Source: Escherichia coli (GTDB lineage: Bacteria > Pseudomonadota > Gammaproteobacteria > Enterobacterales > Enterobacteriaceae). Taken from it: a DNA stretch of 64,000 nt. The stretch lies in assembly GCF_024298765.1 (NCBI RefSeq), contig NZ_CP101210.1. The stretch is one strand, 5' to 3'. The notes under the pieces were generated by a model, which saw nothing but the letters and a program-made list of their open reading frames with translations, was not told the DNA's origin and searched no databases. Position 1 is the stretch's first letter; every line of letters begins with the position of its first letter. A program made the translations under genes and the position numbers. This document shows positions 15,881 to 40,989 of the stretch, piece by piece.

Positions 15881-15955
15881 TTAATATCCTGTTCTTTCTG
15901 TATGACTCATACAGAATTCCTTTATTGATTGTCATTATCACGACAACAAAATTTT

Positions 15956-17008
15956 TCAGGGAAGATAAACTTCACCGGAAAATATTTTTCTTGTCGTCCG
16001 AATAACAGATGCGCGTAACGTCGTGGCATCCTGACCTTCATTACTTAAATGAACGTCGAGCGCACCACTGGGGTGTTCAATATTGATATTGCCGTATCCT
16101 ACAGAAGGGACGATTTGTCGGGTGACGGTGCCTTCCAATGCACAACTACAGGAAATAGCAATAGCACCGGTTATCGCCAAAGCGCGATGGCAAGAATGCG
16201 GCATAAAATAACGCACATTAATTGCCCCGCCTTTCTGCGCTGGAGAAATAAGTACAGGTTTAGGGATAACCATATTACTGACATCGCCTAAGCCCATTGC
16301 TTTACCCGCTTGTAGACGGATAGATTCAATGCTGGCTAATAATGCTTTGTCGGCATCCAGCTCTGCCGGTAATTCATAGCCTGTTTTTCCCAGATATTCA
16401 GCAGGAATAATGACAACTGGCATCGCCATATCGATACAGGTCACCGGGACATCGTCAAAATAATCAATCTGATTATCCGTCGGGAAGACTTTTCCGGTTT
16501 TCGTTCCGGCGGCATTCAGGAAAGTGAGCGCAACCGGTGCGGCAGTACCCGGTACGCCGTCAATTCTGGCGCTACCCTCGTACTCGACAACACCATTTGG
16601 CGTTTGCACATCAGCTTCGATAAACGTACCCGTATTGACGTTGCGGATACGTACGCGGGTAACTGGCGAAGTCGCTGCAATCAAACCATTTTCAATGGCG
16701 AATGCCCCAACGCCAGACAGCATATTGCCGCAGTTAGGCGTGGTATCGACACGTTGCTCATGGACGATAACTTGAGCAAACAGATAATCGACATCTGCAC
16801 GCGGATCGCTGGAGCGGCTAATAATGGCGACTTTACTGGTCAGCGGATTACCGCCGCCAATACCGTCAATTTCCAGATCGTTACCGGAACCCATAATTGC
16901 CATCAATATTTTATCGCGCTGCGTTTGATCTTCGGGTAGATGTTCCGCTAACAGGAACGCGCCCCTCGAGGTTCCACCTCGCATCATCACGCAGGGTATT
17001 TTTTTCAT
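15956..17008 (-). CDS. ybhH: YbhH (PrpF/AcnD-accessory isomerase family)
   Basis: 350-aa ORF MKKIPCVMMRGGTSRGAFLL... Confidence 0.88.
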   Translation of the reverse strand: MKKIPCVMMRGGTSRGAFLLAEHLPEDQTQRDKILMAIMGSGNDLEIDGIGGGNPLTSKVAIISRSSDPRADVDYLFAQVIVHEQRVDTTPNCGNMLSGVGAFAIENGLIAATSPVTRVRIRNVNTGTFIEADVQTPNGVVEYEGSARIDGVPGTAAPVALTFLNAAGTKTGKVFPTDNQIDYFDDVPVTCIDMAMPVVIIPAEYLGKTGYELPAELDADKALLASIESIRLQAGKAMGLGDVSNMVIPKPVLISPAQKGGAINVRYFMPHSCHRALAITGAIAISCSCALEGTVTRQIVPSVGYGNINIEHPSGALDVHLSNEGQDATTLRASVIRTTRKIFSGEVYLP

Positions 17009-17191
17009 AATAATGCCCTCAATTTAAAAACATAACTTATTGCGATATGGTTACATTAAGGGCAAAGCATCTCTAATGACTTTAGCTCAACGATTAATAA
17101 CATTTTTTCATTAATTTAAGTTGGCTAAATGCAGTTAAAATTTTTAACTGCCAGTCACCCAAAATCGTCGCTTCCATTTTCCGGAGTAATA

Positions 17192-18145
17192 ATGAAGCAT
17201 GAATTATCAAGTATGAAGGCATTTGTCATACTGGCAGAGTCCAGTTCATTTAACAATGCTGCTAAATTACTCAATATTACGCAACCTGCATTAACGCGAA
17301 GAATAAAAAAGATGGAGGAAGATTTACACATTCAACTATTTGAGCGTACAACTCGCAAGGTTACGTTAACAAAAGCAGGAAAAAGGTTGCTCCCGGAGGC
17401 GCGGGAATTAATAAAAAAATTCGATGAAACGCTTTTTAATATTCGTGATATGAATGCTTATCATCGTGGTATGGTGACGTTAGCGTGTATTCCGACCGCA
17501 GTATTTTATTTTTTACCGCTGGCAATCGGTAAATTTAATGAGCTGTATCCCAATATTAAAGTGCGGATTCTGGAACAAGGCACGAATAATTGCATGGAAT
17601 CGGTGCTGTGTAACGAATCAGACTTTGGCATAAACATGAACAACGTCACAAATTCATCCATTGATTTTACCCCACTGGTCAACGAGCCGTTCGTGCTGGC
17701 CTGTCGGCGTGACCATCCATTGGCCAAAAAGCAGCTTGTAGAATGGCAGGAGTTAGTGGGTTACAAAATGATTGGCGTACGCTCCTCCAGCGGCAACCGA
17801 CTATTGATAGAACAACAGCTAGCCGACAAGCCCTGGAAGCTGGACTGGTTTTACGAAGTGCGTCATCTTTCGACGTCATTAGGGCTGGTGGAGGCGGGAC
17901 TGGGGATTTCGGCGCTTCCTGGTCTGGCAATGCCCCATGCGCCCTATTCTTCGATTATTGGTATCCCGCTGGTGGAACCGGTTATACGTCGGACATTGGG
18001 GATTATTCGCCGCAAAGATGCCGTGCTTTCTCCGGCAGCTGAACGCTTTTTTGCCTTGCTGATTAATTTGTGGACTGACGATAAAGACAATTTGTGGACC
18101 AATATCGTCGAACGCCAGAGACATGCGTTACAGGAGATAGGTTAA
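17192..18145 (+). CDS. ybhD: YbhD LysR-family transcriptional regulator
   Basis: HTH LysR N-terminus MKHELSSMKAFVILAESSSFNNAAKLLNITQPALTRRIKKMEE; divergent from ybhH. Confidence 0.88.
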   Translation: MKHELSSMKAFVILAESSSFNNAAKLLNITQPALTRRIKKMEEDLHIQLFERTTRKVTLTKAGKRLLPEARELIKKFDETLFNIRDMNAYHRGMVTLACIPTAVFYFLPLAIGKFNELYPNIKVRILEQGTNNCMESVLCNESDFGINMNNVTNSSIDFTPLVNEPFVLACRRDHPLAKKQLVEWQELVGYKMIGVRSSSGNRLLIEQQLADKPWKLDWFYEVRHLSTSLGLVEAGLGISALPGLAMPHAPYSSIIGIPLVEPVIRRTLGIIRRKDAVLSPAAERFFALLINLWTDDKDNLWTNIVERQRHALQEIG

Positions 18146-18185
18146 TACACCGGCGCAGAAGAGACTGCGCCGGGTAAATCAGCGG

Positions 18186-19217
<1,032 letters not shown>

Positions 19218-19335
19218 CTAAAATTAGTCGCTTTTGGCGGTGAATGCTGAATTAAAACGCAGAATTTTGTCCGATAGTGGTATCGGTGTACCATTCGCGC
19301 AGACGAAAATTCTTAACCTTAATCTGGAATACGCC

Positions 19336-20154
19336 ATGACCACACGCGTGATTGCTCTCGACTTAGACGGCACCTTATTGACCCCGAAAAAGACCTTGCT
19401 TCCATCATCGATAGAAGCCCTGGCCCGCGCTCGCGAAGCAGGCTATCAATTAATCATCGTCACAGGTCGCCATCACGTCGCTATTCATCCTTTTTATCAG
19501 GCGCTGGCGCTGGATACACCTGCTATTTGCTGTAATGGCACCTATTTGTATGATTATCATGCAAAAACTGTGCTGGAAGCGGACCCAATGCCTGTTAACA
19601 AAGCCCTGCAACTCATTGAGATGCTGAATGAACACCACATTCACGGTCTGATGTATGTGGATGATGCGATGGTTTATGAGCACCCGACCGGACATGTCAT
19701 TCGCACGTCTAACTGGGCGCAAACCCTGCCGCCGGAACAGCGTCCGACTTTCACACAAGTCGCTTCTCTGGCTGAAACGGCGCAACAAGTTAACGCCGTA
19801 TGGAAGTTCGCCCTGACGCACGATGACCTGCCGCAATTGCAGAATTTTGGTAAGCATGTCGAACATGAACTGGGACTGGAGTGTGAATGGTCCTGGCACG
19901 ATCAGGTTGATATTGCACGCGGCGGCAACAGCAAAGGTAAACGTTTGACGAAATGGGTTGAGGCGCAAGGCTGGTCGATGGAAAACGTCGTGGCCTTCGG
20001 CGATAACTTCAATGATATTAGTATGCTGGAAGCCGCTGGTACAGGCGTGGCGATGGGCAACGCCGATGACGCAGTAAAAGCGCGCGCCAACATTGTGATT
20101 GGTGATAACACCACCGACAGCATTGCCCAGTTCATTTATAGCCACCTGATTTAA
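19336..20154 (+). CDS. ybhA: YbhA HAD-family pyridoxal phosphate phosphatase
   Basis: MTTRVIALDLDGTLL HAD motif; 272 aa from internal ATG of the 306-aa track ORF. Confidence 0.88.
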   Translation: MTTRVIALDLDGTLLTPKKTLLPSSIEALARAREAGYQLIIVTGRHHVAIHPFYQALALDTPAICCNGTYLYDYHAKTVLEADPMPVNKALQLIEMLNEHHIHGLMYVDDAMVYEHPTGHVIRTSNWAQTLPPEQRPTFTQVASLAETAQQVNAVWKFALTHDDLPQLQNFGKHVEHELGLECEWSWHDQVDIARGGNSKGKRLTKWVEAQGWSMENVVAFGDNFNDISMLEAAGTGVAMGNADDAVKARANIVIGDNTTDSIAQFIYSHLI

Positions 20155-21213
20155 TCAGGCGGTTATCGACACACTTTTAATTTGCGCATACAGCCACAGG
20201 CCAGGTTTGATCGCCAGTTCATCCCTGGCCCACGGGCTGATACGCGCCCACAGCGTTTTACCGCCGACTTCCAGCTCCACTTCCACCTGGCCGTTGTCGT
20301 CATAACTATTAACAACTTTTGCCCGCAATACGTTACGAATGCTGGTTTGCTGTGGCGGTTGTAAAACCAGCGAGACATCGGAAGCCTGAATGCGGATGCG
20401 TAGCGCAGCTTGCAGCGGTTCGTCCAGCTTATTGACCCACAAATGCTGATCGCCCAGCGCCAGCGCGGTCATCGCGTAATGCGGATGATGCTCAAGTACT
20501 GTCACTTTCAGAATGCTACTTTGTTGCTCTTTCGGTAGCCACGGATTCATCACGCTACTACCCCAGACTTCTTCCAGCGCGCCAAAGGCTTTCACCTGAC
20601 CGTTTTCCAGTACCATCACTCTGTCTGCCAGATGGAGGATTTCATCCAGCGAATGGCTGACATACAACATCGGAATGTTGATTTCCCGCGTCAGACGTTG
20701 CAGATAAGGCAACAGTTCGCGTTTACGCGGAATATCCAGTGACGCCAGCGGTTCATCCAGCAACAGCAATTCCGGTGCTGTCAGCAAAGCCCGACCAATC
20801 GCCACGCGCTGTTTTTCGCCTCCGGACAGGCTGCCTGGTAAACGTTCAAGCAACGGTTCAATGCCTAAAAGCGCCACCAGCTTATCGAACTGATTGACCA
20901 TGCTTTTCGCCATGCCGTAGCGCAGATTGCCACGCACTTTGTAATGCGGGAACAGCCGCGCATCCTGAAAAACATAGCCAACGCGACGCTTTTCCGGCGA
21001 CAGGCAGATACCTTTTTCGGCATCATTTAGTACCCGACCATTGAGGACAATCCGCCCTTTTTGCGGACGTGTCAGTCCACTGATGGCGTTAATCAGCGAA
21101 GTTTTTCCGGCACCGGAGACGCCAAAGATAGCAGTTATGCCATTGGCGGGCAGCGTTTCATCAATGGTCAGGCAATGGTTGCCCAACGTCTGGGAAAAAT
21201 TCAGTTCCAGCAT
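20155..21213 (-). CDS. modC: Molybdate ABC transporter ATPase
   Basis: 352-aa ORF with Walker [10 protein letters not shown] and TOBE domain. Confidence 0.93.
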
Positions 21214-21215
21214 GA

Positions 21216-21905
21216 TTAGCGCCCTGCCCGTTCACGGCTGATTCTGGCCAGCCATTCTGAAATCAACAGGGAGATCATCGCCAGCGCAATAGAAATAATG
21301 CACAGTCTCGCCGCGCCACTTTCCCCGCCGGGGGTCTGGATCAGGGTATACATGGCAGAAGGAATGGTTCGCGTTTCACCAGGAATGTTCGACACAAAGG
21401 TGATGGTTGCACCAAACTCACCGAGAGAACGAGCAAAAGCCAGTACCGTACCAACAATAATGCCCGGTAAGGTCAGCGGTAACGTGATAGTAAAGAAAAC
21501 GCGCCAGCGCCCGGCACCCAGTGTTCTTGCGGCCTGTTCCAGTTTGATATCAACACCTTCCAGCGCCAGACGAATTGCCCGCACCATCAGCGGAAACGAC
21601 ATAACGGCGGCAGCGAGAACCGCGCCGCGCCAGCTAAAGGCGAAGGTAATGCCAAACCAGTCATACAGACGTTCACCGATAAATCCGCGCCGTCCCATCG
21701 AAACTAATAATAAGTAACCGACGACCACGGGCGGTAACACCAGCGGTAGATGCAGTACGCTGTCGAGCAGAGCTTTGCCCGGAAACGTGCAACGCACCAG
21801 TAACCAGGCAAAAAAGATCCCAAACGGCAGGCTAAACAGCACAGCCAGGGAAGAAACTTTCAGGCTTAATAAAACTGCCTGCCATTCTGGATCAGTCAGT
21901 ATCAT
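21216..21905 (-). CDS. modB: Molybdate ABC transporter permease
   Basis: 229-aa membrane ORF. Confidence 0.93.
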
Positions 21906-22678
21906 TACTTGGTTGTAAATCCGTAACGTTTAAAGATTTCCGCAGCCTGCGGCCCTTTCAAATAATCATAAAATGCTTTCACTGTCGCATTGTTATGCCC
22001 TTCCACAACAGCAACCGGATATTCCACTTTTTTATGTGAATCTTCCGGGAAGGTGGCAACCACTTTTACCCCTTTGCTGGCAACTGCGTCAGAACCGTAA
22101 ACAATACCCAGCGGCGCTTCATTGCGTTCGACCAACGCCAGCGCGCCACGAACATCTTCCGCCGGAGCCAGTTTCGGGGAGAGCGTATCCCATGCGCCCA
22201 GTTTTTGCAGTGCTTCTTTTGCATAAATGCCAGCGGGAACATGTTCCGGATCGCCAACCGCCAGACGACCGCCATTCAGCAGCGAAGTCCAGTTGGTTTT
22301 GCTGTCGATGGTGAAATCTTTCTGCTCGCTGGCTTTCGGTGCTACAACGACCAGGCTATTGCCGAGCAGTGTCTGGCGCGAAGCCGTATCGATCGCTTTT
22401 TTATCAACCGCATAATCCATCCATTTCTGATCGGCAGAAATAAACAGATCCGCAGGCGCACCCGCTTCAATCTGACGGGCCAAAGTAGATGACGAAGCGA
22501 AAGAAGAAACCACATCCACGCCTTTCTCTTTTTTATACTGCGTAGCAATGTCCTGCATTGCGTTAGTCAGTGATGCGGCGGCGAACACCGTGATTTTCCC
22601 TTCATCTGCCAGTGCATTGCCAGCAACAGCGAAAGAGAGTGCCGCCCCGGCAAACAAGTTCAACCATTTACGAGCCAT
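21905..22678 (-). CDS. modA: Molybdate periplasmic binding protein
   Basis: 257-aa ORF with signal peptide MARKWLNLFAGAALSFAVAGNALA. Confidence 0.93.
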   Translation of the reverse strand: MARKWLNLFAGAALSFAVAGNALADEGKITVFAAASLTNAMQDIATQYKKEKGVDVVSSFASSSTLARQIEAGAPADLFISADQKWMDYAVDKKAIDTASRQTLLGNSLVVVAPKASEQKDFTIDSKTNWTSLLNGGRLAVGDPEHVPAGIYAKEALQKLGAWDTLSPKLAPAEDVRGALALVERNEAPLGIVYGSDAVASKGVKVVATFPEDSHKKVEYPVAVVEGHNNATVKAFYDYLKGPQAAEIFKRYGFTTK

Positions 22679-22692
22679 TGGTAACCCCTTAA

Positions 22693-22725
22693 TCTAACGT
22701 TATGTAGGCGACAATATAACGGCTA
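22693..22725. promoter_or_regulatory. ModE operator at modA promoter
   Basis: Reverse complement reads cgttatattgtcgcctacataacgttagattaagg, matching the known ModE site. Confidence 0.7.
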
Positions 22726-22843
22726 ACTCAGAATTTTCCCAGCAGTTATTGCTAACCTTTGTGAGGTAGATGAGAAAAAATATCGGCAGGAAAAGCAGGA
22801 GGTTGAGAAAAAGAAATGCCCGACTAAGCGGGCATTCAGGGAT

Positions 22844-23011
<168 letters not shown>

Positions 23012-23121
23012 TCATGAGACTATTCTAACCGCTAAGCAAAGAAAAGCACTCCCCTTTTGTGCGGTCAGCTTTGCGTGGCGTTCGTTTTCCGTCACAATAA
23101 GACTTTTTCCAGGATATTGTT

Positions 23122-23910
23122 ATGCAGGCCGAAATCCTTCTCACCCTTAAGCTCCAACAAAAATTATTCGCCGACCCGCGCCGCATTTCGCTACTAAAAC
23201 ACATTGCGCTTTCCGGTTCCATTAGCCAGGGAGCGAAAGATGCCGGTATCAGCTATAAAAGCGCATGGGATGCCATTAACGAGATGAATCAGTTAAGTGA
23301 GCATATTCTGGTTGAGCGCGCAACAGGCGGTAAAGGTGGAGGCGGCGCAGTACTGACCCGCTATGGTCAGCGACTGATTCAGCTCTATGACTTACTGGCG
23401 CAAATCCAGCAAAAAGCCTTTGATGTGTTAAGTGACGATGACGCCCTGCCGCTGAACAGCCTGCTGGTCGCGATCTCACGTTTTTCACTGCAAACCAGCG
23501 CCCGTAACCAATGGTTTGGCACCATCACCGCCCGCGATCATGATGACGTTCAACAGCATGTTGATGTCTTACTGGCTGACGGAAAAACACGCCTGAAAGT
23601 CGCAATTACCGCACAAAGCGGCGCGCGTCTGGGGCTGGATGAAGGCAAAGAAGTGTTGATATTACTAAAAGCGCCGTGGGTAGGCATTACTCAGGACGAA
23701 GCGGTCGCACAAAACGCCGACAACCAATTACCGGGTATTATTAGCCATATTGAGCGCGGCGCAGAGCAGTGCGAAGTATTAATGGCGCTACCCGACGGGC
23801 AAACACTGTGCGCCACAGTGCCGGTAAATGAAGCGACTTCTCTTCAGCAAGGACAGAATGTCACGGCCTACTTTAATGCCGACAGCGTGATTATCGCCAC
23901 GCTGTGCTAA
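23122..23910 (+). CDS. modE: Molybdate-responsive regulator ModE
   Basis: 262-aa ORF MQAEILLTLKLQQKLFADPRRISLLKHIALSGSISQGAKDAGISYKSAWDAINEMN. Confidence 0.93.
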   Translation: MQAEILLTLKLQQKLFADPRRISLLKHIALSGSISQGAKDAGISYKSAWDAINEMNQLSEHILVERATGGKGGGGAVLTRYGQRLIQLYDLLAQIQQKAFDVLSDDDALPLNSLLVAISRFSLQTSARNQWFGTITARDHDDVQQHVDVLLADGKTRLKVAITAQSGARLGLDEGKEVLILLKAPWVGITQDEAVAQNADNQLPGIISHIERGAEQCEVLMALPDGQTLCATVPVNEATSLQQGQNVTAYFNADSVIIATLC

Positions 23911-23977
23911 GCGTGTTGACAATTTGTTATGAAACACGTATCCCTGTCAGTAATCGCTGCACAAAATGGGATATAAA

Positions 23978-25450
23978 ATGTCATCGTTGCAAATTTTGCA
24001 AGGCACGTTTCGTCTTAGCGACACAAAAACGCTGCAATTGCCTCAGCTAACGTTAAACGCGGGTGATAGTTGGGCGTTTGTCGGTTCGAATGGAAGCGGG
24101 AAATCGGCGCTGGCCCGCGCGCAGGCGGGGGAACTTCCGCTTTTGAAAGGTGAACGGCAAAGCCAGTTTTCCCACATCACTCGTCTCTCCTTCGAGCAAT
24201 TGCAAAAGCTCGTCAGCGACGAATGGCAGCGGAATAACACCGATATGCTCGGCCCTGGCGAAGATGACACCGGGCGTACCACGGCTGAAATCATTCAGGA
24301 TGAAGTAAAGGATGCACCGCGTTGCATGCAACTGGCGCAGCAGTTCGGTATTACCGCCCTCCTCGACCGACGCTTTAAATACCTTTCCACTGGCGAGACG
24401 CGAAAAACCCTGCTGTGTCAGGCGCTGATGTCGGAGCCTGACTTGTTGATTCTTGATGAGCCGTTCGATGGCCTGGATGTTGCCTCACGTCAGCAGCTGG
24501 CTGAGCTACTCGCCTCGTTACATCAGTCCGGTATTACTCTGGTACTGGTGCTCAATCGCTTCGATGAGATCCCGGAATTTGTCCAGTTTGCTGGCGTGCT
24601 GGCGGATTGTACGTTAGCGGAAACGGGCGCTAAAGAGGAACTGCTCCAGCAAGCACTCGTCGCGCAACTGGCACATAGCGAACAGCTTGAAGGTGTGCAA
24701 CTGCCGGAGCCGGATGAACCTTCAGCACGTCACGCCTTACCCGCCAACGAACCGCGCATTGTGCTGAACAACGGCGTGGTTTCTTATAACGATCGCCCCA
24801 TTCTTAATAACCTTAGCTGGCAGGTGAATCCAGGCGAGCACTGGCAAATTGTCGGGCCAAATGGCGCGGGAAAATCGACGTTATTAAGCCTGATTACTGG
24901 CGATCATCCGCAAGGTTACAGCAACGATTTGACGCTTTTCGGACGACGTCGCGGCAGCGGCGAAACCATCTGGGATATCAAAAAGCATATCGGTTACGTC
25001 AGCAGTAGTTTGCATCTGGATTACCGGGTCAGCACTACCGTGCGTAATGTGATCCTTTCTGGCTATTTTGATTCGATTGGCATTTATCAGGCCGTTTCGG
25101 ATCGCCAGCAAAAACTGGTGCAGCAGTGGCTGGATATTCTCGGCATTGATAAACGCACGGCTGACGCTCCGTTCCATAGTCTTTCCTGGGGACAGCAGCG
25201 TCTGGCGCTGATCGTCCGCGCGCTGGTGAAACATCCGACGTTGCTTATTCTCGATGAACCACTACAGGGGCTTGATCCGCTCAATCGCCAGCTTATCCGC
25301 CGGTTTGTTGATGTGCTGATTAGCGAAGGTGAAACGCAATTGTTGTTTGTTTCGCACCATGCTGAAGATGCGCCTGCCTGTATTACCCATCGTCTTGAGT
25401 TCGTGCCGGACGGTGACTTTTATCGCTATGCGCTGACAAAAATAAACTGA
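23978..25450 (+). CDS. modF: ModF ABC-type ATPase (two ATP-binding domains)
   Basis: Two Walker A motifs GSNGSGKS and GPNGAGKST; start at MSSLQILQG. Confidence 0.9.
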   Translation: MSSLQILQGTFRLSDTKTLQLPQLTLNAGDSWAFVGSNGSGKSALARAQAGELPLLKGERQSQFSHITRLSFEQLQKLVSDEWQRNNTDMLGPGEDDTGRTTAEIIQDEVKDAPRCMQLAQQFGITALLDRRFKYLSTGETRKTLLCQALMSEPDLLILDEPFDGLDVASRQQLAELLASLHQSGITLVLVLNRFDEIPEFVQFAGVLADCTLAETGAKEELLQQALVAQLAHSEQLEGVQLPEPDEPSARHALPANEPRIVLNNGVVSYNDRPILNNLSWQVNPGEHWQIVGPNGAGKSTLLSLITGDHPQGYSNDLTLFGRRRGSGETIWDIKKHIGYVSSSLHLDYRVSTTVRNVILSGYFDSIGIYQAVSDRQQKLVQQWLDILGIDKRTADAPFHSLSWGQQRLALIVRALVKHPTLLILDEPLQGLDPLNRQLIRRFVDVLISEGETQLLFVSHHAEDAPACITHRLEFVPDGDFYRYALTKIN

Positions 25451-25616
25451 GTCGGTAATGCTGACTGTACCGGAGGCGGCCTAAGCGCCCTCTCCGGCCT
25501 ACAGTTCGACGCATCCAGGCATGAAACCGCGACTTTTTTCAGATAAAAAGCTCAATCATTCATAAACCCTCTGTTTTATAATCCATTAATGGCGCATAAA
25601 AAACGGCTAAATTCTT

Positions 25617-25632
25617 GTGTAAACGATTCCAC
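25617..25632. promoter_or_regulatory. gal operator OE within P1/P2 promoter region (OI at about 25730..25745 inside galE)
   Basis: gtgtaaacgattccac upstream of galE; gtggtagcggttacat inside galE. Confidence 0.7.
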
Positions 25633-25710
25633 TAATTTATTCCATGTCACACTTTTCGCATCTTTGTTATGCTATGGTTATTTCATACCATAAGCCTAAT
25701 GGAGCGAATT

Positions 25711-26727
25711 ATGAGAGTTCTGGTTACCGGTGGTAGCGGTTACATTGGAAGTCATACCTGTGTGCAATTACTGCAAAACGGTCATGATGTCATCATTCTT
25801 GATAACCTCTGTAACAGTAAGCGCAGCGTACTGCCTGTTATCGAGCGTTTAGGCGGCAAACATCCAACGTTTGTTGAAGGCGATATCCGTAACGAAGCGT
25901 TGATGACCGAGATCCTGCACGATCACGCTATCGACACTGTGATCCACTTCGCCGGGCTGAAAGCCGTTGGCGAATCGGTACAAAAACCGCTTGAATATTA
26001 CGACAACAATGTCAACGGTACCCTGCGCCTGATTAGCGCCATGCGCGCCGCGAACGTCAAAAACTTTATTTTTAGCTCCTCCGCCACCGTCTATGGCGAT
26101 CAGCCCAAAATTCCATACGTTGAAAGCTTCCCGACCGGCACACCGCAAAGCCCTTACGGCAAAAGCAAACTGATGGTGGAACAGATCCTCACCGATCTGC
26201 AAAAAGCCCAGCCGGACTGGAGCATTGCCCTGCTGCGCTACTTCAACCCGGTTGGCGCGCATCCGTCGGGCGATATGGGCGAAGATCCGCAAGGCATTCC
26301 GAATAACCTGATGCCATACATCGCCCAGGTTGCTGTAGGCCGTCGCGACTCGCTGGCGATTTTTGGTAACGATTATCCGACCGAAGACGGTACTGGCGTA
26401 CGCGATTACATCCACGTAATGGATCTGGCGGACGGTCACGTCGTGGCGATGGAAAAACTGGCGAACAAGCCAGGCGTACACATCTATAACCTCGGCGCTG
26501 GCGTAGGCAGCAGCGTGCTGGACGTGGTTAATGCCTTCAGCAAAGCCTGCGGCAAACCGGTTAATTATCATTTTGCACCGCGTCGCGAGGGCGACCTTCC
26601 GGCCTACTGGGCGGACGCCAGCAAAGCCGACCGTGAACTGAACTGGCGCGTAACGCGCACACTCGATGAAATGGCGCAGGACACCTGGCACTGGCAGTCA
26701 CGCCATCCACAGGGATATCCCGATTAA
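25711..26727 (+). CDS. galE: UDP-glucose 4-epimerase
   Basis: MRVLVTGGSGYIGSHTCVQLLQNGHDVIILDNLCNSKRSVL...; 338 aa. Confidence 0.96.
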   Translation: MRVLVTGGSGYIGSHTCVQLLQNGHDVIILDNLCNSKRSVLPVIERLGGKHPTFVEGDIRNEALMTEILHDHAIDTVIHFAGLKAVGESVQKPLEYYDNNVNGTLRLISAMRAANVKNFIFSSSATVYGDQPKIPYVESFPTGTPQSPYGKSKLMVEQILTDLQKAQPDWSIALLRYFNPVGAHPSGDMGEDPQGIPNNLMPYIAQVAVGRRDSLAIFGNDYPTEDGTGVRDYIHVMDLADGHVVAMEKLANKPGVHIYNLGAGVGSSVLDVVNAFSKACGKPVNYHFAPRREGDLPAYWADASKADRELNWRVTRTLDEMAQDTWHWQSRHPQGYPD

Positions 26728-26736
26728 GGAACGACC

Positions 26737-27783
26737 ATGACGCAATTTAATCCCGTTGATCATCCACATCGCCGCTACAACCCGCTCACCGGGCAATGGA
26801 TTCTGGTTTCACCGCACCGCGCTAAGCGCCCCTGGCAGGGGGCGCAGGAAACGCCAGCCAAACAGGTGTTACCTGCTCATGATCCAGATTGCTTCCTCTG
26901 CGCAGGTAATGTGCGGGTGACAGGCGATAAAAACCCCGATTACACCGGGACTTACGTTTTCACTAATGACTTTGCGGCTTTGATGTCTGACACACCAGAT
27001 GCGCCGGAAAGTCACGATCCGCTGATGCGTTGCCAGAGCGCGCGTGGCACCAGTCGGGTGATCTGCTTTTCACCGGATCACAGCAAAACGTTGCCAGAAC
27101 TCAGCGTTGCGGCATTGACGGAAATCGTCAAAACCTGGCAGGAGCAAACCGCAGAACTGGGGAAAACGTACCCATGGGTGCAGGTCTTTGAAAACAAAGG
27201 CGCGGCGATGGGCTGCTCTAACCCGCATCCGCACGGACAGATTTGGGCAAATAGCTTCCTGCCTAACGAAGCTGAGCGCGAAGACCGTCTGCAAAAAGAA
27301 TATTTCGCCGAACAGAAATCGCCAATGCTGGTGGATTATGTTCAGCGCGAGCTGGCAGACGGTAGCCGTACCGTTGTCGAAACCGAACACTGGTTAGCCG
27401 TTGTACCTTACTGGGCTGCCTGGCCGTTCGAAACGCTACTGCTGCCCAAAGCCCACGTTTTACGGATCACCGATTTGACCGACGCCCAGCGCAGCGATTT
27501 GGCACTGGCGTTGAAAAAGCTGACCAGTCGTTATGACAACCTCTTCCAGTGCTCCTTCCCCTACTCTATGGGCTGGCACGGCGCGCCATTTAATGGCGAA
27601 GAGAATCAACACTGGCAGCTGCACGCGCACTTTTATCCGCCTCTGTTGCGCTCTGCCACCGTACGTAAATTTATGGTTGGTTATGAAATGCTGGCAGAAA
27701 CCCAGCGAGACCTGACCGCAGAACAGGCCGCAGAGCGTTTGCGCGCAGTCAGCGATATCCATTTTCGCGAATCCGGAGTGTAA
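26737..27783 (+). CDS. galT: Galactose-1-phosphate uridylyltransferase
   Basis: 348-aa [38 protein letters not shown]. Confidence 0.96.
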
Positions 27784-27786
27784 GAA

Positions 27787-28935
27787 ATGAGTCTGAAAGA
27801 AAAAACACAATCTCTGTTTGCCAACGCATTTGGCTACCCTGCCACTCACACCATTCAGGCGCCTGGCCGCGTGAATTTGATTGGTGAACACACCGACTAC
27901 AACGACGGTTTCGTTCTGCCCTGCGCGATTGATTATCAAACCGTGATCAGTTGTGCACCACGCGATGACCGTAAAGTTCGCGTGATGGCAGCCGATTATG
28001 AAAATCAGCTCGACGAGTTTTCCCTCGATGCGACCATTGTCGCGCATGAAAACTATCAATGGGCTAACTACGTTCGTGGCGTGGTGAAACATCTGCAACT
28101 GCGTAACAACAGCTTCGGCGGCGTGGACATGGTGATCAGCGGCAATGTGCCGCAGGGTGCCGGGTTAAGTTCTTCCGCTTCACTGGAAGTCGCGGTCGGA
28201 ACCGTATTGCAGCAGCTTTATCATTTGCCGCTGGACGGCGCACAAATCGCGCTTAACGGTCAGGAAGCAGAAAACCAGTTTGTTGGCTGTAACTGCGGGA
28301 TCATGGATCAGCTAATTTCCGCACTCGGCAAGAAAGATCATGCCTTGCTGATTGACTGCCGCTCACTGGGGACTAAAGCAGTTTCCATGCCGAAAGGTGT
28401 GGCTGTCGTCATCATTAACAGTAACTTCAAACGTACCCTGGTTGGCAGCGAATACAACACCCGTCGTGAACAGTGCGAAACTGGTGCGCGTTTCTTCCAG
28501 CAGCCAGCGCTGCGCGATGTCACCATTGAAGAGTTCAACGCTGTTGCGCATGAACTGGACCCAATCGTGGCGAAACGCGTGCGTCATATCCTGACTGAAA
28601 ACGCCCGCACCGTTGAAGCTGCCAGCGCACTGGAGCAAGGCGACCTGAAACGTATGGGCGAGTTGATGGCGGAGTCTCATGCCTCTATGCGCGATGATTT
28701 CGAAATCACCGTGCCGCAAATTGACACTCTGGTAGAAATCGTCAAAGCTGTGATTGGCGACAAAGGTGGCGTACGCATGACCGGCGGCGGATTTGGCGGC
28801 TGTATCGTCGCGCTGATCCCGGAAGAGCTGGTGCCTGCCGTACAGCAAGCTGTCGCTGAACAATATGAAGCAAAAACAGGTATTAAAGAGACTTTTTACG
28901 TTTGTAAACCATCACAAGGAGCAGGACAGTGCTGA
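27787..28935 (+). CDS. galK: Galactokinase
   Basis: 382-aa [52 protein letters not shown]. Confidence 0.96.
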
Positions 28936-29969
28936 ACGAAACTCCCGCACTGGCACCCGATGGTCAGCCGTACCGACTGTTAACTTTGCGTAACAACGCA
29001 GGGATGGTAGTCACGCTGATGGACTGGGGTGCGACTTTACTTTCCGCCCGTATTCCGTTTTCCGATGGCAGCGTCCGCGAGGCGCTGCTCGGCTGTGCCA
29101 GCCCGGAATGCTATCAGGATCAGGCCGCATTTCTGGGGGCCTCTATTGGTCGTTATGCCAACCGTATCGCCAATAGCCGTTATACCTTTGACGGTGAAAC
29201 CGTGACGCTTTCACCAAGTCAGGGCGTTAACCAGCTGCACGGCGGCCCGGAAGGGTTCGACAAACGTCGCTGGCAGATTGTGAACCAGAACGATCGTCAG
29301 GTGCTGTTTGCCCTGAGTTCAGATGATGGCGATCAGGGCTTCCCGGGTAATCTCGGAGCGACGGTACAATATCGTCTGACCGACGATAACCGTATCTCTA
29401 TTACTTATCGCGCCACAGTTGATAAACCTTGCCCGGTGAATATGACTAATCACGTCTATTTCAATCTTGACGGCGAGCAGTCTGACGTGCGCAATCACAA
29501 GTTGCAGATTCTGGCGGACGAATATCTGCCGGTTGATGAAGGCGGCATTCCCCACGACGGCCTGAAATCTGTCGCCGGAACGTCTTTTGATTTCCGCAGC
29601 GCCAAAATCATCGCCAGTGAGTTTCTTGCCGACGACGATCAGCGCAAAGTGAAAGGTTACGATCACGCGTTCTTGTTACAGGCCAAAGGCGATGGCAAGA
29701 AAGTGGCGGCGCATGTCTGGTCAGCAGATGAAAAATTGCAGCTGAAGGTCTACACCACCGCTCCGGCTCTGCAATTCTACTCCGGCAACTACCTCGGCGG
29801 CACACCGTCGCGGGGAACCGAACCTTACACCGACTGGCAAGGGCTGGCGTTGGAAAGCGAGTTTCTGCCGGACAGCCCGAACCACCCTGAATGGCCGCAA
29901 CCGGACTGTTTCCTGCGTCCTGGCGAAGAGTATTCCAGCCTGACGGAATATCAGTTTATTGCTCAGTAA
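28929..29969 (+). CDS. galM: Galactose mutarotase (aldose 1-epimerase)
   Basis: 346-aa [46 protein letters not shown]. Confidence 0.95.
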
Positions 29970-30171
29970 TGTTAAGCCCTCGTCATGAGGGCTTTATCTT
30001 CATATTGTTCAAATCACCAGCAAACACCGACATATTTGCAACTCAATATTCACAACAACCTTACACTGCGACACTATTTTCGCTATGGTTATGCGTAAGC
30101 ATTGCTGTTGCTTCGTCACGGCAATATAATGAGAATTATTATCATTAAAAGATGATTTGAGGAGTAAGTAT

Positions 30172-30924
30172 ATGGCTGTAACTAAGCTGGTTCTGGTTCG
30201 TCATGGCGAAAGTCAGTGGAACAAAGAAAACCGTTTCACCGGTTGGTACGACGTGGATCTGTCTGAGAAAGGCGTAAGCGAAGCAAAAGCAGCAGGTAAG
30301 CTGCTGAAAGAGGAAGGTTACAGCTTTGACTTTGCTTACACCTCTGTGCTGAAACGCGCTATCCATACCCTGTGGAATGTGCTGGACGAACTGGATCAGG
30401 CATGGCTGCCCGTTGAGAAATCCTGGAAACTGAACGAACGTCACTACGGTGCGTTGCAGGGTCTGAACAAAGCAGAAACCGCTGAAAAGTATGGCGACGA
30501 GCAGGTGAAACAGTGGCGTCGTGGTTTTGCAGTGACTCCGCCGGAACTGACTAAAGATGATGAGCGTTATCCGGGTCACGATCCACGTTACGCGAAGCTG
30601 AGCGAGAAAGAACTGCCGCTGACGGAAAGCCTGGCGCTGACCATTGACCGCGTGATCCCTTACTGGAATGAAACCATTCTGCCGCGTATGAAGAGCGGTG
30701 AGCGCGTAATCATCGCTGCACACGGTAACTCGTTACGTGCGCTGGTGAAATATCTTGATAACATGAGCGAAGAAGAGATTCTTGAGCTGAATATCCCGAC
30801 CGGCGTGCCGCTGGTTTATGAGTTTGACGAGAACTTCAAACCGCTGAAACGCTATTATCTGGGTAATGCTGACGAGATCGCGGCGAAAGCAGCAGCCGTT
30901 GCGAACCAGGGTAAAGCGAAGTAA
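30172..30924 (+). CDS. gpmA: 2,3-bisphosphoglycerate-dependent phosphoglycerate mutase
   Basis: [34 protein letters not shown]; 250 aa. Confidence 0.96.
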
Positions 30925-30949
30925 ACGTCATTCGTTTAAAAATGAGAAA

Positions 30950-30977
30950 GCCGACTGCAAGTGAGTCGGCTTTTTTG
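30950..30977 (+). terminator. gpmA rho-independent terminator
   Basis: gccgactgcaagtgagtcggc hairpin followed by ttttttg. Confidence 0.75.
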
Positions 30978-31071
30978 TTTGTCGTTGCTAACAATGGAGC
31001 ACATTGCCTGATGCTACGCTGCGCGTCTTATCAGGGCTGCAAACGTACAGTCATGGCGATTCGACTATAAA

Positions 31072-32124
31072 TTACCCGCGACGCGCTTTTACTGCATTCG
31101 CCAGTTGACGTAACAGAGCATCGGTATCATCCCAGCCAATGCAGGCATCGGTGATGCTCTTACCATAGGCCAGCGGTTCCCCACTCTCGAGGCTCTGATT
31201 GCCTTCCACCAGATGGCTTTCCACCATCACGCCAATAATAGCCTTTTCGCCACCGGCAATCTGCTGGCAAACGTCAGCACAAACATCCATCTGCTTTTTG
31301 AATTGTTTTGACGAGTTAGCATGGCTGAAATCGATCATCACCTGTGCTGGCAGGCCTGCTTTGTTCAGCCCTTCTTTCACTTCAGCAACGTGCTTCGCGC
31401 TGTAGTTAGGCTCTTTACCGCCGCGCAGAATGATATGGCAATCGCCGTTACCGCTGGTATTCACAATCGCCGAATGCCCCCATTTCGTTACGGACAGGAA
31501 GCAGTGCGGCGCACCGGCGGCATTAATGGCATCGATAGCCACTTTAATCGTACCGTCGGTGCCATTTTTGAAGCCGACCGGACAAGAAAGCCCTGATGCC
31601 AGTTCGCGGTGCACCTGCGATTCGGTGGTACGTGCGCCAATTGCGCCCCAGCTCATCAGGTCAGCGAGATATTGTGGGGTGATCATATCCAGGAATTCAC
31701 CCGCCGCTGGCAGACCGCTGTCGTTAATATCGAGCAGCAATTTGCGGGCAATACGCAGACCATCGTTGATCTGGAAGCTGTTATCCATATGCGGATCGTT
31801 AATCAGCCCTTTCCAGCCCACCGTAGTACGCGGCTTTTCAAAATAGACGCGCATCACGATTTCCAGCTCATCTTGCAACTCTTCACGCAGCGTCAGCAAG
31901 CGAGTGGCATACTCTTTCGCCGCGACAGGATCATGAATTGAGCACGGACCAATCACCACCAACAGGCGATCATCATTACCTTTCAGGATCTTATGGATCG
32001 CTTTTCGGGCATGGGCGACCGTATTCGCGGCATTTTCAGTAGCGGGGAATTTTTCCAGCAATGCGACAGGAGGAAGTAACTCTTTGATTTCTTTGATGCG
32101 TAAATCGTCGTTCTGATAATTCAT
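31072..32124 (-). CDS. aroG: DAHP synthase, Phe-sensitive
   Basis: 350-aa ORF MNYQNDDLRIKEIKELLPPVALLEKFPATENAANTVAHARKAIHKILKGNDDRLLVVIGPCSIHDP. Confidence 0.96.
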   Translation of the reverse strand: MNYQNDDLRIKEIKELLPPVALLEKFPATENAANTVAHARKAIHKILKGNDDRLLVVIGPCSIHDPVAAKEYATRLLTLREELQDELEIVMRVYFEKPRTTVGWKGLINDPHMDNSFQINDGLRIARKLLLDINDSGLPAAGEFLDMITPQYLADLMSWGAIGARTTESQVHRELASGLSCPVGFKNGTDGTIKVAIDAINAAGAPHCFLSVTKWGHSAIVNTSGNGDCHIILRGGKEPNYSAKHVAEVKEGLNKAGLPAQVMIDFSHANSSKQFKKQMDVCADVCQQIAGGEKAIIGVMVESHLVEGNQSLESGEPLAYGKSITDACIGWDDTDALLRQLANAVKARRG

Positions 32125-32194
32125 GTCTGTTCCAGTGTTGCCATACTTATCTTAGTGAATGCAATACTTCCAATCTATATCTTCCGTCAGAATG

Positions 32195-32212
32195 TGTAAA
32201 CGGGGTTTTACA
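32195..32212. promoter_or_regulatory. TyrR box (TGTAAA-N6-TTTACA) in aroG promoter
   Basis: tgtaaacggggttttaca upstream of aroG. Confidence 0.7.
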
Positions 32213-32439
32213 CTATGAACGGATTAATCCTGGAATTAGCAAGAAAAACGCCAGATTGTCGCGAAAAACGAGATCTCTCCTACAATTTCTAACTGTAACT
32301 CCTTTGTTTGTTAATTATTTCAAGATTCTCTGCTGGGTATCTTTGCCTGGCTGAAATCTTAAACCATTGCCTTATATTCACCTGCAAATGCACTGTTGGA
32401 AGAGGTTATCCGACATAACGACCATAACAGGAGCATCCT

Positions 32440-32820
32440 ATGAAAATGACAAAACTGGCCACACTATTTTTGACTGCCACTCTAAGCCTTGCCAGCGGTG
32501 CCGCACTGGCTGCCGATAGCGGAGCGCAAAGCAATAACGGCCAGGCAAACGCCGCAGCTGATGCGGGCCAGGTAGCCCCTGACGCCCGTGAAAATGTCGC
32601 GCCAAATAACGTCGACAATAACGGGGTAAATACCGGTTCTGGAGGCACAATGCTGCATCCGGATGGTTCTTCAATGAACAACGACGGCATGACCAAAGAT
32701 GAAGAGCACAAGAACACCATGTGCAAAGATGGTCGCTGCCCGGATATCAATAAAAAAGTCCAAACCGGTGATGGCATCAACAATGATGTCGATACCAAAA
32801 CCGACGGTACCACGCAGTAA
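32440..32820 (+). CDS. ybgS: YbgS periplasmic protein
   Basis: 126-aa ORF with signal peptide [24 protein letters not shown]. Confidence 0.88.
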
Positions 32821-32933
32821 CCCTGCGAAATAGCCAATAATGGGAGAGCGGAGTCTCTCCCTTTTAATTTTTCCCTTCTAAAAGCAGTATGATGTCATAA
32901 AGTTAAGTGAGAATAATTAAGGGATGACTCGTC

Positions 32934-33875
32934 ATGGCGCACTCACACTCACACACTTCCTCACACCTGCCAGAAGATAATAATGCTCGTCGCTTGTTAT
33001 ATGCTTTCGGCGTGACTGCCGGGTTTATGCTCGTAGAAGTCATTGGTGGTTTTCTTTCCGGTTCTCTGGCATTGCTGGCCGATGCGGGTCATATGTTGAC
33101 CGATACTGCCGCCCTGCTTTTCGCCCTACTCGCAGTGCAATTTTCCCGTCGTCCTCCCACCATTCGCCACACTTTCGGTTGGCTAAGATTGACCACGCTC
33201 GCGGCGTTTGTGAATGCCATCGCCCTGGTGGTGATTACTATTTTGATTGTCTGGGAGGCGATAGAACGCTTCCGCACTCCGCGTCCGGTCGAGGGCGGCA
33301 TGATGATGGCAATTGCCGTGGCTGGGCTGCTGGCAAATATACTTTCTTTCTGGTTACTTCATCACGGCAGCGAAGAGAAAAACCTCAACGTGCGAGCAGC
33401 GGCACTGCATGTGCTCGGGGACCTGCTGGGTTCGGTTGGGGCTATTATTGCCGCGTTGATTATTATCTGGACCGGCTGGACACCTGCTGACCCCATTCTC
33501 TCAATACTGGTGTCGCTTCTGGTTCTGCGTAGCGCGTGGCGACTGTTGAAAGATAGCGTGAATGAATTACTTGAAGGTGCACCGGTATCGCTGGATATCG
33601 CCGAACTGAAGCGTCGTATGTGCCGGGAAATCCCGGAAGTCCGCAATGTGCACCATGTGCATGTATGGATGGTAGGCGAGAAGCCGGTGATGACGCTGCA
33701 TGTGCAGGTGATCCCGCCACACGATCACGATGCCTTGTTAGATCAGATCCAACACTACCTGATGGATCACTATCAGATTGAGCACGCCACTATTCAGATG
33801 GAATATCAACCTTGTCATGGGCCAGACTGCCACCTGAATGAAGGGGTGTCTGGCCATTCACATCATCACCATTAA
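32934..33875 (+). CDS. zitB: Zinc efflux cation diffusion facilitator ZitB
   Basis: 313-aa CDF transporter ORF with His-rich ends. Confidence 0.93.
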
Positions 33876-34591
33876 TGGGACAGCGCGCGTGAACCTCTTT
33901 CGCGTGCGCTGTTGATCCACATCCGGCTGCCGTTGAGGGCAATAAAGGTCAGGATGATGTACTCCAGAGACATGGCGTAAACGCCCTGAAGTGCAAAAAT
34001 AACGACGCTAATCACGTTAATAATCACCCACAACAGCCAGTTTTCCACATACTTACGCGTCATCAGAATCATTGCCACGATAGATAACACCATCATGCAT
34101 GAATCCCAGAACGGGAAAGCGTCCGGCTGTAGTTCAGGCATCGCAACCTGTAATCCTAATGCTTGCATGATCATGACTGCCACGCGGGTCAAAAATGCAA
34201 ACACCGGATTGATAAATACTGTCATCAGACCAATCGAAACAACGCAAACCGCTAACCAGCTTAGCGCCTTCGGCAATGGCAACCAGCGAATTTTCAACTC
34301 CGCCTCGTTCTGACTGGTTTGTCGCGACCACGCATACCAGCCGTAAATATTCGCGGCAAAGAAAAACACCTGTAATAGCAGGCTGGCATACAGCTGAATC
34401 TGAAAGAAAATAATGCCAAACAAGGTGACGTTGATCAGGCCAAAGAAGTAGTTGCTGATCTTCTCCAGACTGGCAAGGCCAATACACAGCAACCCGGCGA
34501 TCGTGCCTACCGCTTCGATCCATGAGAGATCATAACCGCCTGCACCTATTGGTATATGTACCAGGATATTCTGCACACTAAAAAAATCCAT
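33872..34591 (-). CDS. pnuC: Nicotinamide riboside transporter PnuC
   Basis: 239-aa membrane ORF downstream of nadA. Confidence 0.93.
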
Positions 34592-34628
34592 CTTTCCCCC
34601 AAAGCGTAACGTTACGCCTTATTATTCG

Positions 34629-35672
34629 TTATCCACGTAGTGTAGCCGCAAAATCCAGCATACGATTGAGCGGCACCAGCGCCCTCTCTCGCAGCCTTTC
34701 ATCAACATGAACCTCGTGATTGCTTCCTTCCTGTTCTAATGCCTCTGCGATGGCCTGAAGGCCATTCATGGCCATCCACGGACAATGCGCGCAGCTGCGG
34801 CAGGTTGCACCCTCACCCGCGGTTGGTGCTTCCAGTAACTCTTTATCTGGCACCGCCTGCTGCATTTTGTAGAAAATGCCCCGATCGGTTGCCACGATAA
34901 GCCGCTGATGTGGCAATGTTTTCGCAGCAGCGATCAGTTGACTGGTGGAACCGACCGCATCCGCCATATCGACAATAGCTTGTGGTGATTCTGGATGCAC
35001 CAGTATGGCAGCATCCGGGTATTCTTCTTGCAAGCGGGTTAACGCCTGAGTCTTAAATTCATCATGCACAATGCAGGCACCCTGCCAGCATAAAATGTCT
35101 GCGCCCGTCTGTTTTTGCACGTAACGCCCCAGATGTTTGTCGGGTGCCCAGATGATTTTTTCACCCAAACTATCCAGATGATCAATAAGTTCGACGGCAA
35201 TGCTTGAAGTTACCACCCAATCTGCGCGCGCTTTTACCGCAGCAGAAGTGTTGGCGTAGACGACGACAGTACGATCGGGATGGGCATCGCAAAATGCGTT
35301 AAATTCTTCAACAGGGCAGCCGAGATCCAGTGAACATTCAGCCTGAAGTGTCGGCATCAGAATTGTTTTTTCCGGACTGAGAATTTTGGCGGTTTCTCCC
35401 ATAAATCTCACCCCAGCGACTAATAACGTAGAAGCGGGATGCTTTGCACCGAAGCGCGCCATTTCCAGAGAATCAGAAATACAGCCACCGGTTTCTTCTG
35501 CCAGTTGTTGAATTTCGGGATCGGTATAGTAGTGGGCAACCATCACCGCATTACGTTCTTTTAGCAGACGTTTTATCTTCTCACGGTAATACGCTTTTTC
35601 ATCAATGCTTAACGGCGTCGGCTTCGGGGGGAAAGGATAAATCGCCGTGTCTGGATCAAACATCACGCTCAT
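34629..35672 (-). CDS. nadA: Quinolinate synthase
   Basis: 347-aa [66 protein letters not shown]. Confidence 0.96.
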
Positions 35673-39567: not shown

Positions 39568-39699
39568 CATATCTCCCTTATCTGGACCGATGGCCCACGA
39601 TAATTTAGCAGAATGTTAACAAACTAAAATACACAAAACTACCAGAACCCCGTAGCAACCGGTGCCTGATGTTGACCGTCGGAACAGTCAACATCGCGA

Positions 39700-40989
39700 T
39701 TACGGTTTGAAGTCCAATGGCGCGTTTTTGAACACTTCATATACTGCCTGGCTTGGTGGTTTCGGGATCTTCGCAAGTTTAGCTGCTGCCAACGCAGCTT
39801 GACAAAGTGCGGGATCGCCACCTTCAGGTTTGATATCCAGTAACATACCATCGGGTGCCAGTTTTATGCGCAGCGTACAGGTTTTGCCTGCATAGGACGA
39901 TGCGTCATAGAACTTACTTTCGATAGCAGATTTAATCTGCCCGGCATAGTTATTGATATCGGCCCCTGATGCGCCATTGTTTTTAGTATTACCACTCCCG
40001 GCAGGCGAAGCATTGTTCCCTTTCGCCCCTCCCCCCGTTTTCGGTGCATTCTTACCAGAGCTTAGCTCACCGAAAATATCATCTGCCTCTGCGGCAGCTT
40101 TTGCTGCAGCGGCTTTTTCAGCTGCTGCTTTTGCCGCTGCCGCTTTTTTGTCTGCGGCGGCTTTTTCTGCCGCTGCTTTCTTATCAGCTGCTGCCTTTTC
40201 AGCAGCCGCTTTTTCTGCTGCTTTTTTGTCGGCTGCCGCTTTCTCTGCTGCCGCTTTCTTATCAGCTGCAGCCTTTTCAGCAGCCGCTTTCTTCTCAGCT
40301 TCTGCCTTGGCTTTTTCAGCAGCTTCGGTTGCCGCTTTCTTTCTTGCTTCAGCTGCAGCTGCTTCTGTCGCTTCAGCTTTCTTCTTCAGCGCCGCAGCAG
40401 CAGCCTCGGCTTTTTTCTGCGCTTCGACTGCGGCTTTGGCGGCTTCTGCTTCTGCTTTTTTCTTCGCGTCTGCCGCCGCTTTCTTCGCTGCTTCTTCCGC
40501 AGCTTTAGCATCCGCTTCGGCCTTCGCTTTAGCATCCGCTTCGGCCTTCGCTTTAGCATCTGCCGCCGCTTTCGCTGCCGCCTCTTCCGCTTGCTTCTGC
40601 TTTAACTCGGCCTGTTTTGCGGCTTCTTCAGCCTGCTTTTTCTGCTCCTGAGCCGCTAACCGCTCTTTCTCAAGTTGCTTCAGGCGTTCCTGTTCAGCCG
40701 CTTGTTTCTCACGCAGTTCTTCAGCAGCCTGCTGCTCCTTCATCTTGCGCTGCTCATCAGAACGCTTCGCGCTTGATTCCTGGCTTTGCATACGTTTGTA
40801 CTGCTCAACTACCGCACCTGAATCAACCATGACAGCGTCGATGGACGAACCACCGCCGCCTCCGGCTGAAGCTTCTATATTCTCATCGAACGAACTCCAG
40901 ATCAGCGCCGCAAATAAGATGACATGCAGCACTGCTGAAATAATTATCGCCCGCTTGAGCTTGTCGTTTTGTTCGGTTGCCTTTGACAC
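39700..40989 (-). CDS. tolA: TolA (429 aa here, GTG start)
   Basis: MSKATEQNDKLKRAIIISAVLHVILFAALIW followed by long Ala/Lys/Glu-rich helical domain and C-terminal domain. Confidence 0.95.
   Translation of the reverse strand: MSKATEQNDKLKRAIIISAVLHVILFAALIWSSFDENIEASAGGGGGSSIDAVMVDSGAVVEQYKRMQSQESSAKRSDEQRKMKEQQAAEELREKQAAEQERLKQLEKERLAAQEQKKQAEEAAKQAELKQKQAEEAAAKAAADAKAKAEADAKAKAEADAKAAEEAAKKAAADAKKKAEAEAAKAAVEAQKKAEAAAAALKKKAEATEAAAAEARKKAATEAAEKAKAEAEKKAAAEKAAADKKAAAEKAAADKKAAEKAAAEKAAADKKAAAEKAAADKKAAAAKAAAEKAAAAKAAAEADDIFGELSSGKNAPKTGGGAKGNNASPAGSGNTKNNGASGADINNYAGQIKSAIESKFYDASSYAGKTCTLRIKLAPDGMLLDIKPEGGDPALCQAALAAAKLAKIPKPPSQAVYEVFKNAPLDFKP

Follow-up and report, generated by a model that had tools for sequence, protein, structure and literature searches.

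The tolA gene of the window, a 64,000-nucleotide stretch of Escherichia coli DNA (RefSeq assembly GCF_024298765.1, contig NZ_CP101210.1), contains 2.5 perfect copies of a 24-bp repeat in the part of the gene that encodes domain II, one copy more than K-12. The tract is an in-frame variable-number tandem repeat (VNTR): the units are arranged head to tail, strains differ by whole units, and copy number is homoplasic among strains. Judged from the genome comparisons, the tract would be a second natural length-variable site in TolA domain II, low in copy number and recurrently slipping. We attribute the variation to misalignment of direct repeats followed by clonal inheritance, with an effect on the protein that is most likely small or neutral, and we give this reading a probability of about 0.85.

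The tolA gene and its 24-bp repeat

TolA domain II bridges the periplasm from the TolQR motor to domain III, which binds TolB and Pal. The features of the window that are relevant to this analysis are the following:

39700-40989, minus strand: tolA coding sequence, 1,290 bp, GTG start, 429 aa (ORF list)
Around tolA, minus strand: operon ybgC-tolQ-tolR-tolA-tolB-pal-cpoB (ORFs of the window)
40537-40560, minus strand: first repeat copy in coding order, tolA nt 430-453, codons 144-151, DAKAKAEA
40513-40536, minus strand: second repeat copy, tolA nt 454-477, codons 152-159, DAKAKAEA
40502-40512, minus strand: partial third copy GATGCTAAAGC, tolA nt 478-488, codons 160-163
40368, minus strand: private nonsynonymous SNP, tolA nt 622 G>A, Ala208Thr (K-12 Ala200Thr), in domain II outside the repeat
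40088-40300, minus strand: 15/18-bp tolA repeat array, residues ~230-301, tolA nt 690-902, C-terminal part of domain II

The open reading frame is a genuine TolA, as an earlier note on this DNA had proposed. The 429-aa product passes two NCBIfam equivalog models, NF007065 (526.1 bits, cut-off 213) and TIGR02794 (308.3 bits, cut-off 59.45), and RefSeq labels the same 1,290-bp gene in relatives as tolA; its record for the 429-aa TolA of the lineage is WP_000030668.1. The operon context is that of tolA, with tolB, pal and cpoB downstream and tolR, tolQ and ybgC upstream, and the gene order is colinear with the annotated loci of K-12 and of the lineage. The three-domain layout is also present. A hydrophobic segment is seen in the translation at the N-terminus, domain II (residues 48-318) has 106 Ala, 53 Lys and 40 Glu among its 271 residues, and residues 300-429 match the solved domain III chains 1tol, 3qdp, 2x9a and 1s62. 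The full-length protein matches the 421-aa TolA of the TolQRA cryo-EM entries.

By exact matching, GCTTTAGCATCCGCTTCGGCCTTC is found on the plus strand at 40502-40525 and again at 40526-40549. The earlier note had described a tandem duplication at 40503-40550; the two copies are there, with a start one base earlier, and a partial third copy, absent from that note, extends the perfect 24-base periodicity to 40560. Tandem Repeats Finder reports the same tract (40502-40560, period 24, 2.5 copies, 100% matches, score 118), a total of 59 bp or tolA nt 430-488. On the coding strand the unit is GATGCTAAAGCGAAGGCCGAAGCG, which is translated as DAKAKAEA; the AKAEADAK unit named earlier is this peptide read in another phase. 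With codons 144-163 the repeat lies, as claimed, inside helical domain II, which is rich in Ala, Lys and Glu. The tolA of the window matches itself perfectly over at most 35 nt, at offset 24, and a 1.5-copy allele over only 13 nt; in 500 codon shuffles of domain II the longest self-match averaged 10.7 nt and reached at most 19 nt. The repeat is well above what chance would give in a domain of such low-complexity composition.

The tolA gene of K-12 MG1655 is 1,266 bp long, encodes 421 aa and has 1.5 copies of the unit. The sole gap in its alignment with the tolA of the window is 24 bp of the repeat. The earlier claim that one 8-residue unit has been added to give 429 aa is borne out by this alignment, and the reference does not share the repeat count of the window. 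The two full copies are identical, so the extra copy relative to K-12 may be either one and is not definable. The other protein differences from K-12 are A180V, which is common to the lineage, and the private A200T (A208T in the numbering of the window).

The 15/18-bp array further downstream, for which Tandem Repeats Finder gives rows with periods of 15, 30, 33, 45 and 78, has the K-12 length in the window and aligns to K-12 with no gap. We considered whether the 24-bp tract might be this published array, and this was ruled out by position (nt 430-488 against nt 690-902).

Copy-number alleles and independent origins

Copy number was surveyed in 5,426 complete genomes, and for rare states on other backbones the numbers given here are minima. 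In the first census, a 131-base query spanning the repeat was used and the matches were ranked by identity to the window. As this census was blind to duplicates on the K-12 backbone, a synthetic K-12-type duplication query was added. The identical 131 bases were found in one piece in 55 complete E. coli genomes, and of the other 5,423 genomes with a match, most give an alignment of 107 bases, which corresponds to 1.5 copies. Copies (n) can be counted across assemblies with the pattern GCGGCA(GATGCTAAAGCGAAGGCCGAAGCR)nGATGCTAAAGCT.

Four copy-number states were found. About 5,360 of the 5,426 genomes (~99%), K-12 among them, have 1.5 copies. At least 60 genomes (1.1%) have 2.5 copies, namely the 55 with the identical 131 bases, FDAARGOS_943 and four of the K-12 type. 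A synthetic 0.5-copy query identified at least three genomes with 0.5 copies (A37, Q5 and GF130), which encode one identical 408-aa TolA. The 3.5-copy state, with a TolA of 437 aa, was seen with a 3.5-copy query in SCU-171 alone among the matches listed, and the sequence was inspected. Alleles differ by whole units, with alignment gaps of exactly 24 or 48 bp, and alleles with 0.5, 1.5, 2.5 and 3.5 copies exist on one tolA backbone with 0 SNPs between them outside the indels (1.27 kb). The 0.5-copy allele (tolA at 1112-2338 of the fetched loci) additionally lacks 15 bp in the C-terminal repeat array, and the three isolates with this protein came from a rodent in Australia, a quail in Russia and chicken meat in Switzerland.

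Among the natural tolA genes that were sampled, the shortest has 1,158 bp (matched in two pieces) and the longest 1,314 bp; these lengths convert to about 385-437 aa, so that a TolA of 429 aa is unremarkable. An exact look-up of six TolA alleles in a collection of 15 billion proteins gave 0 matches; the K-12 TolA was likewise absent, which makes this collection uninformative about abundance. Two of the 5,433 tolA matches are on plasmids instead of chromosomes. The tolA of the O157:H7 strain PV15-279 aligned with just 32% of the 131-base repeat query, which suggests that this tolA is rearranged or interrupted near the repeat.

The duplication is found on three tolA backbones. In 13E0767, MB50 and OkiPb01716, tolA is the K-12 gene except for the duplication, and OkiPb01683 has the K-12-type duplication on a further tolA variant. 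Both copies in these four genomes end in GCA, a K-12-specific codon, whereas the codon in the copies of the window lineage is GCG. The duplicates in these genomes were therefore copied from a K-12-type unit and have an independent origin. FDAARGOS_943 has the duplication on the third backbone, 18 SNPs from the lineage allele. Taken together with the contracted and the further expanded alleles, these comparisons point to at least five events: the duplication arose independently three times, one allele expanded further and one contracted.

OkiPb01683 has a TolA of 422 aa (tolA at 1112-2380 of the fetched locus), the result of the 24-bp duplication and a net loss of 21 bp. A cluster of differences in this gene is located at tolA nt 759-870, inside the 15/18-bp array, so both repeat tracts vary in one allele. 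The TolR and TolB of this strain are also variant proteins.

Clonal inheritance, proposed repeat misalignment and possible selection

A 24-kb query around tolA (window positions 28000-52000) returned 57 genomes that are at least 99.8% identical. The span of the match fits 2.5 copies in 45 of these relatives, is exactly 24 bp shorter in 11 and corresponds to 3.5 copies in one; 1.5 copies were confirmed in the sequences of five of the 11 shorter relatives (GPEC1035, 20Ec-P-124, D10, CT30 and APEC E12049). The 55 carriers of the identical 131 bases belong almost entirely to one near-clonal lineage, and many of them came from chicken, turkey or other avian sources. The carriers 14EC020 (PMC6206212) and APEC O2-211 (PMC6256689) are ST117. 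A SNP matrix of nine near-clonal genomes over ~48 kb contained 30 SNPs, all of them private to single genomes, and no sites informative for ordering the copy-number change. Private SNPs of this kind would indicate a recent star-like expansion of the lineage. In a CRISPR-spacer scheme (PMC10740950), E12049 was grouped with APEC O2-211 and apart from E14033. With 1.5 copies in E12049 and 2.5 copies in the other two, this grouping gives a weak hint that the copy states are non-monophyletic.

The window has six private SNPs (23468, 39654, 40368, 45751, 60713 and 63430), none of which was found in ten relatives over 48 kb; each of the other lineage members has two to six, and this similarity fits a recent star-like expansion. 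Position 39654 is in the intergenic spacer between tolA and tolB. The best match to the tolA of the window among 5,425 genomes is 99.9% identical, and none is 100% identical. In 2009C-3133 the only two private SNPs in 48 kb are in tolR and tolQ (window equivalents 41212 and 41554). RefSeq lists the TolR and TolQ of this strain under separate accessions, WP_060564979.1 and WP_077870398.1, so both SNPs appear to be protein-altering; that both fall in the TolQR motor of a single strain is a curious coincidence. Strain 64.1 and MSHS 133 have kept the 24-bp duplication, and their 24-kb match is 15 bp shorter than the query, which would fit one 15-bp unit fewer in the C-terminal tolA array.

SCU-171 and 2017.09.02CC are ~120 and ~200 SNPs, respectively, from the ST117-type core in 48 kb. 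SCU-171 shares an SNP-free tract of 23.0 kb with the core (fetched-core coordinates 6350-29371) and 2017.09.02CC shares one of 18.8 kb (15879-34666). These tracts cover the tol-pal and cyd genes and their flanks are ~1% diverged, a pattern that indicates mosaic genomes with recombination boundaries on both sides of the tract. The two strains were for this reason rejected as independent lineages, and their alleles probably reflect either identity by descent or import through recombination. In SCU-171 the third copy arose in the 23-kb SNP-free tract, with no SNP accumulated nearby.

Rearrangement mediated by short repeats, by slipped-strand mispairing or unequal sister-strand exchange, predicts exact gains and losses of one unit, and the alleles observed at the 24-bp site follow this prediction. 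Direct repeats 24 bp apart bracket the unit in the 1.5-copy alleles: GATGCTAAAGC (11 nt) in the lineage and GCAGATGCTAAAGC (14 nt) in K-12. Misalignment of these flanking repeats would add or remove exactly one unit, either through slipped-strand mispairing at replication or because sister chromosomes recombine unequally. After one duplication the perfect self-homology of the tract extends over 35 nt, and both gains and losses of units should then become easier. The 2.5-copy allele of the window arose on the ST117-type tolA backbone, and most of the lineage has inherited it clonally; the protein remains intact and is one DAKAKAEA unit longer. Contractions of the 15/18-bp tolA array occur at ~7x10^-5 and are mainly RecA-dependent (PMC3477136); by analogy, recombination instead of replication slippage may be the route at the 24-bp site. 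If alpha-helical, the eight added residues, which favour helix, would lengthen the protein by ~1.2 nm by standard helix geometry, or ~3% of the 271-residue domain II. By analogy with the published TolA variants, a small effect of eight residues at codon 152 is possible and a large one is unlikely.

TolA is required for the entry of group A colicins and Ff phages and for detergent tolerance, and the tract length might therefore have been tuned adaptively, with bile or detergents, group A colicins or filamentous phages as the selective agents and with 2.5 copies aiding the success of the ST117-type lineage. The duplication is present on three backbones and predominates among the close relatives (45 of 57). 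In the other tolA array every non-wild-type length resulted in graded deoxycholate tolerance and lower plating of fd; synthetic copy-number variants shifted deoxycholate tolerance over four orders of magnitude and reduced fd plating to 28-43% (PMC3477136). These published effects, however, were obtained with changes of at least 25 residues in a different tract. Domain II chimeras of other length or composition kept colicin uptake, so gross changes are tolerated in this function, whereas for stabilising the outer membrane domain II has to be structured (PMC10666116). Hitch-hiking would also make an allele predominate in a near-clonal lineage such as this one, in which all SNPs over 48 kb are private, and recurrence is expected from mutation alone given the flanking direct repeats. 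Additionally, both a contraction (0.5 copies) and an extra expansion (3.5 copies) are seen, which argues against a single favoured direction, and ~99% of genomes stay at 1.5 copies. We regard adaptive tuning as improbable, at perhaps one chance in ten. Somewhat less probable still is the fuller proposal that the 24-bp site is a second tunable element of TolA, in which 0.5-3.5 copies alter the reach or stiffness of the helix and shift bile and detergent tolerance and susceptibility to colicins and phages, 2.5 copies are favoured in poultry-associated ST117, and the repeated duplications reflect selection.

The data here neither support nor exclude selection on length, which the earlier note had called plausible. 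Clonal inheritance explains the frequency of the allele, which hardly occurs outside one near-clonal lineage, and recurrence at the site is what is expected of a slippage hot spot without selection. Clonal inheritance together with a mutational hot spot accounts for all of the observations.

It is also quite unlikely that the duplication arose once and was spread by gene conversion of a short patch, with no hot spot at the site. Recombination does move the tolA region, as is seen in the SNP-free 19-23 kb of SCU-171 and 2017.09.02CC between flanks that are ~1% diverged. In FDAARGOS_943 no backbone-specific SNP lies closer to the repeat than ~85 nt on its upstream side and ~45 nt on its downstream side, which makes a patch of <180 bp possible. 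A single origin is contradicted, however, by the GCA codon in both copies of the four K-12-type duplicates against GCG in the lineage, and two more events, which gave the 0.5- and 3.5-copy alleles, took place separately on a single backbone. An assembly artefact was raised in the earlier note, and assemblers can miscount repeats. Such an error, or one of sequencing, can be dismissed for the source genome because a standard read is longer than the 59-bp tract, 55 other complete genomes from unrelated projects contain the identical 131 bases, five more have the duplication on other backbones, and RefSeq lists the 429-aa protein as WP_000030668.1.

Under the reading of misalignment followed by clonal inheritance, the practical value of the site is small, and neither a new mechanism nor a new type of system is suggested. 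The 24-bp indel can serve as a marker, by PCR size or in silico, that flags most members of the ST117-type lineage. It is not usable alone as a phylogenetic character because it is homoplasic, with at least five events. The alleles also form a natural series of -8, 0, +8 and +16 residues on one otherwise identical TolA, which could be used to probe how finely outer-membrane stabilisation, the import of colicins and the entry of Ff phages depend on the length of the helix that transduces force.

Comparison with known repeat systems

A literature search, with the earlier 234-isolate survey of Zhou et al. outside its scope, returned no report of the E. coli 24-bp tolA site as a VNTR. A study of TolA in APEC (PMC11343052) deals with a deletion mutant only and describes no alleles. 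The closest known system is the tolA array described by Zhou, Michiels and Aertsen in 2012 (PMC3477136), which has 13 imperfect units of 15/18 bp and varies from 8 to 16 units across 234 natural isolates. The 24-bp site shares with this array its location in domain II of tolA, natural in-frame variation of copy number, and changes of protein length without loss of function. It differs in that its 24-bp unit is perfect rather than imperfect, is of another length and sequence, and is present in only 0.5-3.5 copies.

VNTR loci internal to tolA are used in MLVA schemes for Salmonella and Klebsiella. The site described here is like slipped-strand tandem duplications and such VNTRs in its flanking direct repeats of 11-14 nt, its whole-unit alleles, its recurrence on unrelated backgrounds and the occurrence of both gains and losses. 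Unlike the loci used for MLVA typing, it has a very low copy number and is far less variable, with ~99% of genomes in one state. There is also a likeness to contingency loci, since the repeat is in an envelope gene that is exploited by phages and colicins and its units are gained and lost reversibly. In contrast to contingency loci, the changes at the 24-bp site are in frame and do not switch the gene on and off, and one state dominates the population.
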